NCBI RefSeq assembly: GCF_050920415.1
Contig: NZ_CP169309.1
DNA from: Escherichia coli
GTDB taxonomy: Bacteria > Pseudomonadota > Gammaproteobacteria > Enterobacterales > Enterobacteriaceae
Direction: 5' to 3' (one strand)
DNA length: 64,000 nucleotides
Part shown: positions 6,803 to 52,459 of the stretch, piece after piece
Numbering within the stretch: the first letter of the stretch is position 1
Layout of the letters: each line of letters opens with the position of its first letter
Translations under genes and position numbers: made by a program
The notes under the pieces: generated by a model
The model's database searches: none
Seen by the model: the letters and a program-made list of their open reading frames with translations, nothing else
What the model was told of the DNA's origin: nothing

Positions 6803-7252
6803 GTGGCGATTAATTTCAGCCCCAAGGTTGGTGAAATACTGGAATGCAACTTTGGTAACTATCCTGTTAGCCAGAATGGACAGTTCAGCACGACGTATTA
6901 CGATGGCCGCATTCCACCTGAGATGATAAAAAATAGGTTGGTTGTCGTGCTCAACGGAAAAATTAATGGCAACGCATGTATCGTCGTTCCATTATCAACC
7001 ACTCGCGACCATGACAAGTTAAATCGTGGAATGCATGTTGAAATAGCCAGTAATGTTATCAATGACCTGCAATTCTTTGATCAGCAGATACGTTGGGCTA
7101 AAGCCGACCTGGTACAACAAGTCAGTCGAAACCGATTAAACAGAGCAAGGACTTATCGGGGGTATCTTAATCAATGTTTGCCACATGAGTTGGTTGCAGA
7201 CATACAGAGGGCAGTCATCAAGTCAATCAATGCCATATCGCTCATAAATTGA
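6803..7252 (+). CDS. yifN: PemK/MazF-like (toxin-fold) family protein, YifN-like; no adjacent antitoxin ORF
   Basis: ORF 6761..7252; AAGGAG at 6787..6792 precedes a GTG at 6803 (VAINFSPKVGEILECNF...). The KNRLVVVLNGK...ACIVVPLSTT segment is reminiscent of PemK/MazF family proteins (from memory, not an alignment). Start is uncertain (6761 or 6803). Confidence 0.6.
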   Translation: MAINFSPKVGEILECNFGNYPVSQNGQFSTTYYDGRIPPEMIKNRLVVVLNGKINGNACIVVPLSTTRDHDKLNRGMHVEIASNVINDLQFFDQQIRWAKADLVQQVSRNRLNRARTYRGYLNQCLPHELVADIQRAVIKSINAISLIN

Positions 7253-9355: not shown

Positions 9356-10246
9356 TTGGATTTACGCGATCTGAAAACCTTCCTGCATCTGGCGGAAAGC
9401 CGCCATTTTGGCCGCAGCGCGCGGGCGATGCACGTTAGTCCATCCACGCTTTCCCGACAGATTCAGCGCCTGGAAGAAGATCTCGGTCAACCATTGTTTG
9501 TACGCGATAACCGTACGGTGACGCTGACCGAAGCGGGCGAAGAACTGCGCGTTTTCGCCCAGCAAACACTGTTGCAGTATCAGCAATTGCGCCACACCAT
9601 CGACCAGCAAGGACCGTCGCTCTCTGGCGAATTACATATCTTCTGCTCGGTGACCGCTGCCTACAGCCATCTGCCGCCGATTCTTGACAGATTCCGCGCG
9701 GAACACCCGTCAGTGGAGATCAAACTCACTACCGGTGATGCGGCGGATGCGATGGAAAAAGTGGTGACAGGGGAAGCGGATCTGGCGATTGCCGGGAAGC
9801 CGGAGACGCTGCCCGGTGCGGTGGCGTTTTCGATGCTGGAGAATCTGGCAGTGGTGCTGATCGCGCCTGCCCTACCGTGCCCGGTGCGTAATCAGGTTTC
9901 GGTAGAGAAGCCGGACTGGTCTACAGTGCCGTTTATCATGGCCGATCAGGGGCCGGTGCGCCGCCGCATTGAGTTGTGGTTCCGACGCAATAAAATCAGT
10001 AACCCGATGATTTACGCCACGGTTGGCGGGCATGAAGCGATGGTTTCGATGGTGGCGCTCGGCTGCGGCGTGGCATTGTTGCCGGAAGTGGTGCTGGAAA
10101 ACAGCCCGGAACCGGTGCGTAACCGCGTGATGATTCTGGAGCGTAGCGATGAGAAAACGCCGTTTGAGCTGGGCGTTTGTGCACAAAAAAAGCGGCTGCA
10201 TGAGCCGCTGATTGAGGCTTTCTGGAAGATTTTACCGAACCATTAA
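9356..10246 (+). CDS. ilvY: LysR-family transcriptional regulator IlvY
   Basis: ORF 9272..10246 contains [40 protein letters not shown] (LysR HTH). The start is probably the TTG at 9356, since no in-frame ATG precedes the HTH. Confidence 0.85.
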
Positions 10247-26504: not shown

Positions 26505-27932
26505 ATGAGCGATAAAAAGAAGCGCAGTATGGCGGGTTTGCCGTGGATCGCGGCGATGGCCTTCTTCATGCAGGCACTTGATGCCACTATTCTGAATACC
26601 GCCTTACCCGCAATCGCTCATAGCCTTAATCGTTCTCCTCTCGCGATGCAATCAGCCATCATCAGTTACACGCTGACGGTGGCGATGCTTATTCCGGTAA
26701 GCGGATGGCTAGCCGATCGCTTCGGTACGCGTCGCATATTTACCCTTGCCGTGAGTCTGTTCACATTGGGTTCTCTGGCCTGCGCACTTTCTAACTCGCT
26801 ACCACAGCTGGTTGTCTTCCGGGTTATTCAGGGGATAGGTGGCGCAATGATGATGCCTGTTGCTCGGCTGGCCTTACTGCGTGCTTATCCTCGTAATGAG
26901 CTTCTTCCTGTATTGAATTTTGTCGCCATGCCGGGTCTGGTGGGGCCAATTTTAGGCCCCGTACTTGGCGGCGTGCTGGTCACCTGGGCAACCTGGCACT
27001 GGATATTTTTAATCAATATCCCCATAGGTATTGCCGGCCTTCTTTACGCGCGCAAACATATGCCCAATTTCACCACCGCACGACGCAGATTCGATATCAC
27101 TGGCTTTTTGCTGTTTGGCCTCAGCCTTGTTCTCTTCTCAAGCGGAATAGAGCTATTCGGTGAAAAGATTGTCGCCAGTTGGATTGCCTTGACGGTAATT
27201 GTCACCAGCATCGGGTTACTGCTTCTCTATATTCTCCATGCACGACACACGCTAAACCCATTAATTTCATTAGATTTATTTAAAACCCGCACTTTCTCGA
27301 TCGGTATAGTAGGCAATATTGCAACCCGTCTGGGGACCGGCTGTGTACCGTTCCTTATGCCATTGATGTTACAGGTAGGATTTGGTTATCAGGCGTTTAT
27401 TGCCGGCTGTATGATGGCACCGACAGCATTAGGTTCCATTATTGCAAAATCGATGGTTACCCAAGTCTTACGTCGTCTGGGCTATCGCCATACGTTAGTG
27501 GGGATCACGGTAATTATTGGGCTAATGATCGCTCAGTTCTCTTTGCAATCACCAGCAATGGCGATATGGATGCTGATCTTGCCGTTATTTATATTAGGGA
27601 TGGCTATGTCGACGCAATTTACCGCGATGAATACCATCACACTTGCCGATCTGACCGATGACAACGCCAGCAGCGGTAACAGTGTTCTGGCGGTCACGCA
27701 GCAACTGTCTATCAGTTTAGGCGTTGCTGTAAGTGCGGCCGTCCTTCGCGTTTATGAAGGGATGGAAGGCACAACGACTGTCGAACAATTCCACTATACG
27801 TTTATCACAATGGGCATTATTACTGTTGCTTCAGCAGCAATGTTCATGCTTCTGAAAACAACCGATGGTAATAATTTGATCAAAAGACAGCGTAAATCTA
27901 AGCCGAACCGCGTTCCATCAGAATCGGAGTAA
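26505..27932 (+). CDS. hsrA: MFS transporter HsrA/YieO (14-TMS drug:H+ antiporter-like)
   Basis: 475-aa hydrophobic [44 protein letters not shown]... Confidence 0.88.
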
Positions 27933-28890
27933 GTTGTAATCGTTGTTGCTGAAGGGTCGGCTGGGTTATCCGATGGATGAGTACATCAATCGCCAGCTCC
28001 CCCAGTTCATCTTTCGGTTGATGGATAGTGGTTAATGGTGGCGTCATAAAGCTTGCCAGTTCGATATCGTCATAGCCAATCACCGCGATATCCTGCGGAA
28101 CCTGTAACTCTGCCTGATATAGCGCCTGGTAAACGCCAACAGCCATAGCGTCATTTCCGGTAAAGACGGCCTGAGGACGCAGCGGATGTGATAACAGTTG
28201 GCGCATAGCGTCAAACCCACCGTTAAATTCAAAATCACCCGTAACTTCATAACCATCGGGAATGTTGAGACCAGCTCTCTTCATCGCCGCCCGATAACCT
28301 TCTAACCGCAGGCGCGCCGGTGTTTTATCCAGCGGGCCAGTAATACAAGCAATACGGGTATGACCTTTATCGATCAGATATTGCGTTGCTAAGTCTCCGC
28401 CCAGCAACGAGTTATCCTGAATAAGATCGCTGTCGCCGTCGAACGGTGCCCAGTCCATCATCACGGTAGGCACTGTCGGATAACGTTGCATGATTTCACG
28501 CGAAGGCTGATGCGTTTCGGTGCACAGTAACAGCAAGCCATCAACGCGTTTTTGCATCAGCGTTTCCAGATTGCGATTCATCCGCTGTTCATCGCCTTCG
28601 GTATTGCAAAGGACAAGACTATAACCGCGTTCGAAGCAGCTGCGTTCAACGCCACGCACCAGTTCAGAATAGAAAGGATTGGTACTGGCAGTGATCAACA
28701 TGCCAATAGTATGTGTTTGATTGAGTTTGAGGCTACGCGCCAGAGCTGATGGCGCGTAATTGAGTTCTTTAATCGCCGCTTCAACTTTGGCGGTAATCGC
28801 TTCACTGACGAAGCGATCTTTATTGATAACGTGAGAAACTGTTGAGGTAGAAACGCCCGCCAGGCGGGCAACATCTTTCATTGTAGCCAA
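27898..28890 (-). CDS. rbsR: Ribose operon repressor (LacI family)
   Basis: 330-aa [58 protein letters not shown] (LacI HTH). Confidence 0.93.
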
Positions 28891-28893
28891 GCG

Positions 28894-29823
28894 TCACCTC
28901 TGCCTGTCTAAAAATGCGTCGATCTCTTCACGCCACGGTACGGAAGGTTGTGCGCCTTTACGTGTTACGGCAATCGCAGCGGCGGCATGGGCAAAACGAA
29001 TCGCCTCTGGCAATGGTTTTTCTTCCAGCAACGCCGTGATTAACGCGCCGTTAAAAGTATCTCCGGCAGCAATGGTATCGACAGCCTGCACCCGGAATCC
29101 AGGAACGCGCTGACCTTCACCATTCACGCTAGCCCACACACCACGACTTCCTAAGGTGATCAGTACGGTACGGATACCTTTTTCATGCAGTACCTGCGCG
29201 GCCTTCGCTGCATCTTCATCATTTTCAACGCGAATACCGGTGAGCTTTTCTGCTTCCGTTTCATTTGGCGTAATAATGTCCACCAGAGCCAGCAGTTCGT
29301 CAGGAAGTTCACGAGCCGGAGCTGGGTTAAGCGCAACGATAGTCTTATTTTGATGGGCGATTTTCGCCGCTGCCATCACACTTTCGAGTGGTGATTCCAG
29401 CTGCATTAATAATGCCGATGCGTTAGCAATACGCTCACGTTGCGCCTCCACCAACGCAGGGGAAAGGGCTGCGTTAGCGCCGGCATGAATACCAATGACA
29501 TTCTCACCTTCGCCATTAACAAAAATCAGCGCCACACCTGTTGATTCGCCTTTGATCACGCTCACCGGAGAAATATCGATGTTATCAGTGGCGAGCTGCT
29601 GGCGAACGCTCTCACCAATACTGTCATCACCCGTACAGGCAATAAACGCGATATTCGCACCGCTACGCCCAGCAGCCACAGCCTGATTAGCGCCTTTGCC
29701 GCCAAATGCAACCTGATAGTGATTACCGGTTACGGTTTCGCCTGGAGTAGGAAAAGATTGAAGATTAAGAATGTGGTCAGCATTAATGCTGCCAAGAACA
29801 ACGAGGCTGCCTGCGTTTTGCAT
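28894..29823 (-). CDS. rbsK: Ribokinase
   Basis: ORF 28894..29850; the internal ATG at 29823 gives MQNAGSLVVLGSINADHILNLQSFPTPGETVTGNHYQVAFGGKGANQAVAA (PfkB family). Confidence 0.92.
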   Translation of the reverse strand: MQNAGSLVVLGSINADHILNLQSFPTPGETVTGNHYQVAFGGKGANQAVAAGRSGANIAFIACTGDDSIGESVRQQLATDNIDISPVSVIKGESTGVALIFVNGEGENVIGIHAGANAALSPALVEAQRERIANASALLMQLESPLESVMAAAKIAHQNKTIVALNPAPARELPDELLALVDIITPNETEAEKLTGIRVENDEDAAKAAQVLHEKGIRTVLITLGSRGVWASVNGEGQRVPGFRVQAVDTIAAGDTFNGALITALLEEKPLPEAIRFAHAAAAIAVTRKGAQPSVPWREEIDAFLDRQR

Positions 29824-29948
29824 ATTCGGGATGTCCATAAAATGCGCCACCGTGTTAGGGTGGCGCGTGCCCTGCTTTTCTTTATTTTACACGTTCATCT
29901 GTCGATGACGTATTTATGTCACCATCAGGTCATACAACCTGATTAAAA

Positions 29949-30839
29949 CTACTGCTTAACAACCAGTTTCAGATCAACCGGATACTTAGCCTGAACTTTC
30001 TCGCCTTTCAGCACTTTATCGGCGGTTTCGACGCCTTTCGCGCCAATCTGATCGGGTAGCTGAGCGATAGTCGCTGCTAGTTTGCCATCATTCACCGCTT
30101 TTTCGCCATCCGGTGTACCGTCAAATCCGACGACCATCACATCCGATTTACCAGCAGTTTGCAGTGCGCGCAGCGCGCCCAGCGCCATTTCATCATTCTG
30201 CGCGAACACAGCCTGAACATCCGGATGAGCGGTCAACAGGTTCTGCATTACGTTCAAACCTTTGGTGCGGTCAAAGTCCGCTGGCTGGCTGGCAAGAACA
30301 TTAAACTTGTGAGCAGCAACGGCCTGCTGGAAACCTTCGCCACGCTCACGAGCTGCGGAGGTACCGGCAATGCCTTGCAGCTCGATAACTTTGGCACCTT
30401 CACCCGCTTTCTTCGCGATATAATCACCCGCGATTTTGCCGCCCAGTACGTTATCAGAAGCAATGTGGCTCACCACTTCACCTTTCGTGGCCTGGCGGTC
30501 AAGAGTGATAACCGGAATGTTCGCCTGGTTAGCCATCTTCACAGCATTACCCACTGCGTCGGAGTCGGTCGGGTTAATCAGCAGAATTTTGGTGCCGCGA
30601 ACAGTTAAGTCCTGCACGTTCGCCAGCTCTTTCGCCGGATTGTTCTGGGAGTCCAGCACCACCAGGTTATAGCCGAGTTTATCCGCCTCTTTCTGCGCAC
30701 CATCTTTCAGCGATACAAAGAACGGGTTGTTAAGCGTGGAAACCACCAGCGCGATGGTGTCTTTTGCCATCGCATTCGCACTGACGGTGGCGCTTAGCGC
30801 AACAGCGGAAACCAGGGTAGCCAGTTTTTTCATGTTCAT
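29949..30839 (-). CDS. rbsB: Ribose ABC transporter periplasmic binding protein
   Basis: ORF 29949..30845; [41 protein letters not shown] (signal peptide plus PBP fold). Confidence 0.93.
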
Positions 30840-30863
30840 ATTCAAGATGTCCTGTAGTCGTTA

Positions 30864-31829
30864 TTACTGTTTTTTGTTGTCTACCAGCACCGCCAGCAAA
30901 ATCACCACCGCTTTGACGATCATCTGGTAATAGGAGGAAACACCTAACAAATTCAATCCATTATTAAGGAAGCCAAGAATTAATGCGCCGATCAACGTCC
31001 CAACAATGCGACCTTTTCCGCCCGCCAGACTCGTACCGCCCAGAACCACCGCAGCAATTGCATCCAGCTCATAGCCAGTCCCCGCCGTGGGTTGTGCGGA
31101 GGAGAGACGCGCCACTTCAATGATCCCGGCCAGCGATGCCAGCAGACCACAAAGAGAATAGACGATGATTTTGATTTTATTGACGTTGATACCAGAAAGA
31201 CGCGTAGCCGCTTCGTTGCCGCCCAGCGCGTAGATGTAACGCCCCAAACGTGTGTGATGCAGCATGTACCAGGCCGCGAGGAACACAATCCCCATGATCC
31301 AGACTGGCGTCGGTACGCCCAGCGGACGACCAATACCAAACCAGCCGAACAGATCGGCGTTCTCAGTAAAGCCGGTATTCACTGGGCTACCGTTGGTATA
31401 AACCATGGTCACGCCGCGCAGTAAAAGCATCATAACCAGCGTAGCGATAAACGCCTGGACGCGACCTTTCGCTACAATCACCCCGGTTACCGCACCAATA
31501 GCGGCACCTAACGCGAGAGCGGCAGCGACAGCCACCAGCGCATTGACTTCAATGCCGACGATAGATGCAGCTACTGCGCCAGTCAGCGCCAACAGAGAAC
31601 CTACTGACAAGTCGATGCCCGACGTCAGGATCACCAGCGTCATCCCGACCGCCATAATGGCATTCACCGAGGTTTGCTGGAGAATATTGAATAAGTTATT
31701 GATGGTGAAAAAGTTCGGGCTTAACGTCGAGACAATCGCGATCAGCACCAGCAGAGCGATAAGCGATTTCTGCTCCATCAGCCACGCTTTCGTGAAATAA
31801 CGGCGACCAGAGACAGTCTGGGTTGTCAT
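30864..31829 (-). CDS. rbsC: Ribose ABC transporter permease
   Basis: 321-aa hydrophobic ORF MTTQTVSGRRYFTKAWLMEQKSLIALLVLIAIVSTLSPNFF... Confidence 0.93.
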   Translation of the reverse strand: MTTQTVSGRRYFTKAWLMEQKSLIALLVLIAIVSTLSPNFFTINNLFNILQQTSVNAIMAVGMTLVILTSGIDLSVGSLLALTGAVAASIVGIEVNALVAVAAALALGAAIGAVTGVIVAKGRVQAFIATLVMMLLLRGVTMVYTNGSPVNTGFTENADLFGWFGIGRPLGVPTPVWIMGIVFLAAWYMLHHTRLGRYIYALGGNEAATRLSGINVNKIKIIVYSLCGLLASLAGIIEVARLSSAQPTAGTGYELDAIAAVVLGGTSLAGGKGRIVGTLIGALILGFLNNGLNLLGVSSYYQMIVKAVVILLAVLVDNKKQ

Positions 31830-38965: not shown

Positions 38966-38969
38966 ACAA

Positions 38970-51760: not shown

Positions 51761-52459
51761 ATGTCTTTTAAAACGTCTTTTGAAGGTGTCCAACCGGTTG
51801 TGATGACCGATCGCGCCACCTTTATCCGCCGTGCTTATATGCATCTGGCTGGGGCAGTTGTCGGGTTCATCATTCTCAGCGCGCTGTTTATCTTTAGTGG
51901 GCTTGGCAAAATGATGCTTAGGGTGCTGATGAACAGTGGTCAGTTTGGTTGGCTGGTGGTGCTGGGTGCTTTTATTCTGGTCAGCATGCTGGCGACTCGT
52001 CTGGCAGATAATGTGGAGTCTAATCAGACCCAACTGATTGGACTGGGGATATACGTACTGGCAGAAGCGTTAATTTTTGCACCTTTACTGACACTGGCAG
52101 CGTATATTAATCCAGCAATTATTGGCGCGGCGGGCATCACCACAGCACTGCTTGTGGGGGGTCTGACATTCACTGCCTTCACGACCAAAAAAGATTTCTC
52201 TTTCATGCGTTCGTTTTTAACCATGGCGGGCTTTATCGCTTTCGGTGCCATTATCGCGAGCATTTTTATGGGATTCTCACTGGGCGTCTGGTTCTCGGCG
52301 GCAATGGTGCTGTTGTGTGCTGGCTTCGTGCTGTACGACACGTCTAATATTATTCATCATTATCCTACCGATCGTCCGGCAGGCGCGGCGCTACATCTCT
52401 TCGCCTCTATCGCTACCATGTTCTGGTATGTTCTGCGCATTTTCATGTCCCGCGATTAA
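51761..52459 (+). CDS. Bax inhibitor-1 (BI-1)/YccA-family integral membrane protein, about 7 TMS
   Basis: 232-aa hydrophobic ORF with family-typical C-terminal motifs TTKKDFSF ... YDTSNIIHHY ... ending SRD; GAGG is followed by the ATG; AT-rich 5' flank; own terminator. Confidence 0.75.
   Translation: MSFKTSFEGVQPVVMTDRATFIRRAYMHLAGAVVGFIILSALFIFSGLGKMMLRVLMNSGQFGWLVVLGAFILVSMLATRLADNVESNQTQLIGLGIYVLAEALIFAPLLTLAAYINPAIIGAAGITTALLVGGLTFTAFTTKKDFSFMRSFLTMAGFIAFGAIIASIFMGFSLGVWFSAAMVLLCAGFVLYDTSNIIHHYPTDRPAGAALHLFASIATMFWYVLRIFMSRD

Follow-up and report, generated by a model that had tools for sequence, protein, structure and literature searches.

Convergent hsrA and rbsR of Escherichia coli: an ordinary 35-bp tail-to-tail overlap with evidence for Rho-dependent termination of the hsrA transcript

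Two convergent genes that leave no DNA between their stop codons raise the question of whether both reading frames are genuine up to their last codons, and of how and where their transcripts come to an end. This arrangement occurs at the hsrA/rbsR junction of an Escherichia coli contig (NZ_CP169309.1), of which we analysed a stretch of 64,000 nucleotides, referred to here as the window. The listing of open reading frames and direct reading of the codons place hsrA and rbsR on opposite strands with 35 bp in common at their 3' ends, CTAAGCCGAACCGCGTTCCATCAGAATCGGAGTAA (Table 1). On the plus strand hsrA closes with GAA TCG GAG TAA (...PSESE-TAA), and on the minus strand rbsR closes with GGT TCG GCT TAG (...ERGSA-TAG). 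With opposite-strand ORFs and common 3' nucleotides, hsrA/rbsR is a convergent overlapping protein-coding pair. RefSeq/PGAP gives identical coordinates for both genes in strain MFDS1022581 (NZ_CP169399.1), which is 100% identical to the window over the query tested, and the K-12 MG1655 reference (b3753/b3754) has rbsR at 3938227-3939219 (+) and hsrA at 3939185-3940612 (-), also with an overlap of 35 bp. The preliminary description of this DNA was right about the names, strands, coordinates and overlap length, as the ORFs, the codon reading and the K-12 reference agree. It had pointed to a different stop position in either gene as what would remove the overlap, but both stops are unambiguous and the same overlap is found in 34 other species. 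The 35-bp overlap is real, ordinary and already known, being present in the reference annotation, with the overlap of the transcripts catalogued as well. The allele at 27400-28400 is itself rare, since an identity of 99% or more to it is reached in only 3 of 5,417 complete E. coli records; nearly all the other records are 97-98% identical, and K-12-type strains 97.3%.

Table 1. Positions in the window of the features at and around the hsrA/rbsR junction and of two other closely spaced convergent pairs.
Feature	Position	Strand	Description
ilvY/ilvA	10243-10246	convergent	4-bp overlap, no spacer
yieP	25790-26482	+	GntR/FadR-family regulator; 22 nt upstream of hsrA, co-oriented
hsrA (yieO)	26505-27932	+	475 aa, DHA2-family MFS transporter; NCBIfam NF007799 and TIGR00711 matches
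Candidate Rho-loading stretch	27660-27792	-	C/G about 1.2-1.5 (weak); 106-240 nt past rbsR stop, antisense to hsrA; from composition only
Imperfect stem-loop	27816-27875	-	in rbs transcript just past rbsR stop; no U-tract
HsrA hydrophilic, basic C-terminal tail	27861-27929	+	after last hydrophobic segment; A-rich coding; phase differences between clades arise here
rbsR stop TAG	27898-27900	-	hsrA reads across as TCT-AAG
Dual-strand coding stretch	27898-27932	both	HsrA 465-475 (S465 partial) and stop; RbsR 320-330 (L320 partial) and stop
rbsR	27898-28890	-	330 aa, LacI-family ribose operon repressor; NCBIfam equivalog NF007743
hsrA stop TAA	27930-27932	+	complement of rbsR codons Leu320-Thr321 (CTT-ACT)
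Untranslated hsrA 3' extension with C>G stretches	28038-28310	+	antisense to rbsR; brackets published Rho region at about 28194
rbsR-internal 3' end (28792) and Rho region (28730)	28730-28792	-	near rbsR 5' end, about 100-160 nt inside; coordinates mapped from K-12
viaA/asnA	38966-38969	convergent	4-nt gap

The two proteins differ in how firmly their ends are set. RbsR matches its NCBIfam equivalog over the full length (1-330/330, 697 bits), is identical to PDB 9ny7 (a 'Ribose operon repressor' chain) over aligned residues 2-330, and aligns with PurR through residue 329 (TPILMERGS vs HPRLIERRS). Since this last alignment runs through residue 329, the RbsR residues encoded in the overlap lie within the conserved LacI/PurR core, and the C-terminus of RbsR is, to judge from these matches, fixed by its fold. 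The match of HsrA to the MdtD-subfamily profile ends at residue 465, and its last 24 residues are strongly hydrophilic (Kyte-Doolittle mean -1.86). Taken together, these profile and structure matches and an overlap geometry kept in 35 loci indicate that both ORFs are genuine to their annotated ends. PGAP labels the transporter gene 'mdtD, multidrug transporter subunit MdtD' (NF007799, 457.7 bits against a cut-off of 426), its K-12 name being hsrA (b3754). This label is probably the property of a paralogue; genuine mdtD presumably belongs to the mdtABCD operon. The spacing between yieP and hsrA suggests that they form an operon, and yieP is probably the source of the transcription that enters the overlap from the left. 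On the other side of the junction, the mechanical ORF of rbsK (28894-29850, minus strand) opens with a GTG at 29850 and has 318 aa, and the RefSeq start is at 29823 (309 aa). The ribokinase profile aligns to this ORF from residue 13, and the longer start is probably not the real one.

We compared the junction in 81 loci, of which 80 are Enterobacteriaceae obtained from an HsrA scan (one genome per species) and one is the window's own strain, with the ends of the genes anchored on conserved motifs. The two genes abut in all 81, the largest gap being 3 nt and the largest overlap 53 bp, and in none of these loci is there room for a terminator between them. The junction takes one of a few discrete forms, and across the 81 loci these sort cleanly by which of three phases hsrA has with respect to the rbsR stop. 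In phase 0 there is either a gap of 2 nt (9 loci) or an overlap of 4 bp (24 loci, L057 and L079 among them). Phase 2 comprises a gap of 3 nt (1 locus) and overlaps of 9 bp (6 loci) and 24 bp (1 locus), and phase 1 comprises the overlaps of 35 bp (35 loci from at least five genera) and 53 bp (5 loci). RbsR ends nearly everywhere in ...TPxLxxRGS[A/V] followed by the stop, except in the 53-bp class, where 6 aa are added. In these five loci (L030, L032, L035, L036 and L042, from Lelliottia, Huaxiibacter and an Enterobacter MAG) the usual rbsR stop is lost and the protein ends, for example, in ...RGSVSAGGDL. The ends of the HsrA tail vary widely among loci, with ...KEKH at one extreme. We infer from the phase partition that the classes arose through small insertions or deletions where hsrA is A-rich at its end (...AAAGAACGGCACAAGAAA...), and not through the point loss of a stop. 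The alignment is unrooted, and the 35-bp form would be most simply explained by a frameshift in this A-rich tail. One of the loci (L033, CACSKA010000004.1) carries the label 'Chryseobacterium sp. 18061' and is a typical Enterobacteriaceae hsrA/rbsR locus; its geometry matches that of L027, 'Citrobacter sp. 18056' (CACSJR010000002.1), from the same project. The L033 assembly is probably mislabelled or contaminated.

The overlap also bears on how the two sequences may vary. In its register, position 2 of the hsrA codons pairs with position 3 of the rbsR codons and position 3 of hsrA with position 2 of rbsR, so no site of the overlap is silent in both genes. Within the 35-bp class, the rbsR codons under the hsrA stop are CTT in 33 of 35 loci and ACT in 34 of 35, and the rbsR stop is TAG in all 35. 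The two CTC variants turn the hsrA TAA into TGA, which is still a stop. In the same 35 loci, the third-position diversity of rbsR is 0.239 in the last 11 codons vs 0.447 in the preceding 99, and none of 90 other 11-codon windows of rbsR is as low, a result that comes from 11 codons only and from phylogenetically related species, many of them Citrobacter. In the 38 species whose overlap does not exceed 9 bp, these rbsR codons show 0.484 vs 0.477 elsewhere, and 47 of 90 windows are as low. The overlap sequence is in this sense constrained by both frames, within the limits of a small sample of related species, and the pattern suggests that the HsrA tail is translated and under some, weak, constraint where the overlap exists.

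An overlap of this length accords with chance. Across the antisense strand of rbsR, stops occur in the hsrA frame every 38 nt on average; a read-in of 35 nt is therefore the size to be expected once the hsrA frame passes the rbsR stop, and the 35-bp overlap is statistically not unusual. Seven convergent pairs are present in the window, six of them between coding sequences and the seventh being hdfR/tRNA-Trp; two of the seven overlap and another has a gap of 4 nt. The second overlapping pair, ilvY/ilvA, resembles hsrA/rbsR in that a regulator gene and its convergent neighbour have overlapping coding ends within the same window. Its overlap of only 4 bp, with stop codons in common, corresponds to the short state of hsrA/rbsR in 24 other species, unlike the 35 bp found here. 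A 1989 paper on ilvY/ilvA by Sameshima, Wek and Hatfield, cited in PMC4161252, reportedly has overlapping transcription and termination in its title.

Regarding transcription, each full mRNA must include its own stop codon, so reciprocal antisense transcription over at least 35 bp is required. The antisense transcription that the preliminary description had deduced is to that extent a logical necessity, and published transcript data agree with it. Its statement that no room is left for a terminator is literally true as well, as there is zero intergenic DNA, and no terminator-like hairpin was found nearby either. The junction has no G+C-rich stem-loop flanked by A- and U-tracts between the stops, as a bidirectional intrinsic terminator would. 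A consensus scan for intrinsic terminators over 27300-28500 gave a single weak site, far off at 27516, and a search of 27600-28300 for inverted repeats came back empty. On neither strand is the folding of the overlap and its flanks better than that of shuffled sequences (z -0.07 to +0.84), alignment folds revealed no conserved or covarying structure at the junction, and an Rfam scan of 25300-31000 at E<=1 had no match in or near the overlap. A structure predicted beyond the hsrA stop, with an alignment fold of -33.8 kcal/mol, was discarded, having only one compensatory pair and owing its conservation to the coding sequence of rbsR.

It is textbook E. coli biology that Rho clears antisense 3' extensions, and the published data point to the same at this locus. 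A Rho termination region is reported at K-12 3938923 (-), described as 'antisense rbsR', with a Rho score of 2.78 (p 7.6e-6; Adams 2021, PMC7815308 supplementary file 2). Reads upstream and downstream of this position were 102/32 without bicyclomycin (BCM) and 164/143 with BCM (PMC7815308). The two sequences are colinear here with a single offset, and this position corresponds to 28194 (+) in the window, 262 nt past the hsrA stop. The Rho score was calculated over 800-nt windows in one condition (LB) with modest reads, which makes the termination point approximate (PMC7815308). Rho requires an untranslated stretch of RNA longer than 50 nt (PMC7815308). The untranslated hsrA extension that surrounds the reported region has a C/G ratio of 1.5 at 28038-28170 and of up to 2.4 at 28188-28310 on the plus strand, a modest enrichment by composition. 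The hsrA transcript then combines the traits of a Rho-dependent terminator, namely a published BCM-sensitive read-through (in one condition) and an untranslated, modestly C-rich and G-poor RNA. The signal at 28194 could instead reflect an antisense transcript that starts inside hsrA, and not the full yieP-hsrA mRNA. Among 1078 Rho regions, 51.5% are antisense to genes, and such regions are reported as well opposite both viaA and asnA, a nearly abutting pair in the neighbourhood (PMC7815308). As in the antisense Rho sites of that study, which cites Peters et al. 2012, termination at hsrA/rbsR is BCM-sensitive, antisense and downstream of a stop codon; nothing distinguishes this site from the others, with its modest score and approximate position (PMC7815308). 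The evidence points to Rho, and not to a terminator hairpin, as what ends at least the hsrA-side transcript.

On the rbs strand, neither a Term-seq 3' end nor a Rho region is listed between the sites internal to rbsR and the rrnC region, the operon being poorly expressed in the conditions used (PMC7815308). The internal sites are a Term-seq 3' end at K-12 3938325 (+) and a Rho region at 3938387 (+) with a score of 3.77 (PMC7815308), and they adjoin a hairpin with a 9-bp stem, GATCGCTTC-GTCAGT-GAAGCGATT, that starts at 28818 (-) and has -12.6 kcal/mol. They may represent premature termination within the repressor gene and would limit the transcription of the rbs operon that reaches the overlap in LB. 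Further upstream in the same operon, the sRNA RbsZ (b4804), mapped from K-12 to 29839-30072 (-), spans the rbsB 3' end and the rbsB-rbsK spacer, and Term-seq gives a very strong peak at its own 3' end (K-12 3937278).

We consider it likely that two real genes overlap tail to tail here in the ordinary way, with the hsrA transcript ended by Rho inside antisense rbsR, and three other explanations were weighed against this one. The overlap might be an artefact of annotation, in which HsrA ends earlier, as in species with ...KERHK-type tails, and its last ten or so codons are an untranslated or irrelevant run-on, with no true coding overlap. The end of the MdtD-subfamily match at residue 465, near which many relatives end, and the hydrophilic, variable tail are what such a reading would predict. 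However, there is no in-frame hsrA stop before 27930, which means that the ribosome must reach 27932, and the same stop position is kept in 35 loci of at least five genera. The depletion of rbsR synonymous variation only where the overlap exists, and the preservation of a stop by both stop changes (TAA to TGA), also go against an artefact, which we regard as highly improbable. Another explanation places a cryptic intrinsic or bidirectional terminator inside the coding sequence, where it would end one or both transcripts without Rho, the candidate being the imperfect stem-loop just past the rbsR stop (Table 1). The 128 nt downstream of rbsR do fold better than shuffles (z -2.26, 4 of 200 as good), and a clean hairpin is present just past rbsR in some other genera, such as Atlantibacter and Buttiauxella. 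Nevertheless, the E. coli stem has no U-tract, the consensus scan is empty there, and it is absent even in Citrobacter and Salmonella, and also in Enterobacter, the alignment fold of the region reaching only -5 kcal/mol with almost no covariation; we rejected it as a terminator. Term-seq in three conditions has no 3' end at the stem, and the opposite strand shows BCM-sensitive termination (PMC7815308), which leaves a terminator of this kind quite unlikely.

The remaining explanation is that the spacer-less junction was kept by selection as an antisense coupling device, an excludon through which the rbs operon and yieP-hsrA repress each other. Ribose-induced rbsDACBKR would read into hsrA and yieP-hsrA into rbsR, and the means would be collision of polymerases, Rho, and cleavage of the 3' duplex by RNase III. 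The abutment of the pair in all 81 loci, with a gap never above 3 nt, is in our overall assessment the sole real argument for it. The pair also belongs to the ExcludonFinder core set, rbsR-hsrA being one of 165 convergent excludons that recur in 50% or more of 58 MG1655 transcriptomes (ExcludonFinder 2025, Table 1, PMC12288877), a list that includes asnA-viaA as well. From the published data and the logic of the overlapping coding sequences, the opposite-strand transcripts of rbsR-hsrA do overlap, but any pair with overlapping CDS qualifies in this respect almost by default. Typical convergent excludons have a short intergenic region, with a mean of 95 nt, and leaky terminators (PMC12288877), whereas hsrA/rbsR has zero intergenic DNA. 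The functional part of the definition is mutually exclusive expression, whereas rbsR-hsrA is placed among excludons by transcript overlap alone; in the literature searched we found neither anticorrelated or reciprocal expression nor RNase III dependence for this pair. In mscL-arfA, another convergent E. coli pair in the ExcludonFinder list with overlapping 3' transcript ends, a published antisense function (antisense RNA crosstalk) is described (PMC10070815), whereas no such regulatory consequence is reported for rbsR-hsrA. Head-on RNAP collisions have been proposed to terminate convergent pairs, but termination by collision is reported to need a stem-loop, and none is conserved at hsrA/rbsR. 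Transcription into the overlap is already restricted by Rho and by the termination region within rbsR. Furthermore, tight junctions are common, with 75 convergent overlapping pairs in E. coli (Huvet & Stumpf 2014, PMC4161906) and three of the seven convergent pairs of the window; overlap at the 3' ends is found in 276 of 370 convergent E. coli operons, with a mean of 286 nt (Conway 2014, PMC4161252). From clade to clade there is free variation in both the phase and the length of the overlap, as would be expected from drift more than from a tuned element, and on balance we find a selected excludon unlikely.

Under the preferred reading, that of an ordinary overlap with Rho-dependent termination, the following course of events may be proposed. 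In the lineage of Escherichia, Citrobacter, Salmonella and Enterobacter, hsrA would have acquired an indel in its A-rich 3' end that put it in the phase reading through the rbsR stop. The shifted frame would then have continued to the next TAA, 35 nt into rbsR, adding some ten residues to the hydrophilic tail. With the C-terminus of RbsR fixed, the HsrA tail would be limited to sequences compatible with the rbsR codons. As intergenic DNA is absent, there is no place between the genes for either transcript to end. Beyond its stop, the yieP-hsrA transcript would continue untranslated, antisense to rbsR, until Rho stops it about 260 nt downstream, as published for K-12, and rbs-operon transcripts that reach the rbsR stop would end likewise inside antisense hsrA. 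The outcome would be mRNAs with complementary 3' ends, in an 'excludon-type' layout.

Other features of the window were also noted. The stretch 25432-25682 (-), which lies between yieP and the 16S rRNA gene of the rrn operon, gives a sub-threshold Rfam match to Ysr197 (Yersinia sRNA 197), with 78 bits vs a gathering score of 167, an E-value of 1e-17 and the full model covered. This match may be the rrn promoter or leader region. A PemK/MazF-family toxin gene lies between rep and ppiC (6803-7252), a Bax-inhibitor-1/YccA-family gene between atpC and glmU (51761-52459) and an lpf-O113 long polar fimbria operon between glmS and pstS (56402-61383). These three features are presumably absent or pseudogenised at the corresponding K-12 positions.

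The arrangement has practical consequences for work on either gene. Because no position of the overlap is silent in both frames, recoding, deleting or tagging one 3' end alters the other gene, which concerns C-terminal tags, scarless deletions and genome-reduction designs. To what was already known of the overlap in E. coli, our analysis adds that the junction is spacer-less family-wide, and that the length of the overlap jumps between discrete values set by the phase of hsrA. It also adds that the 35-bp form leaves a measurable footprint on the synonymous sites of rbsR, which makes it probable that the tail of HsrA is translated and under weak constraint.
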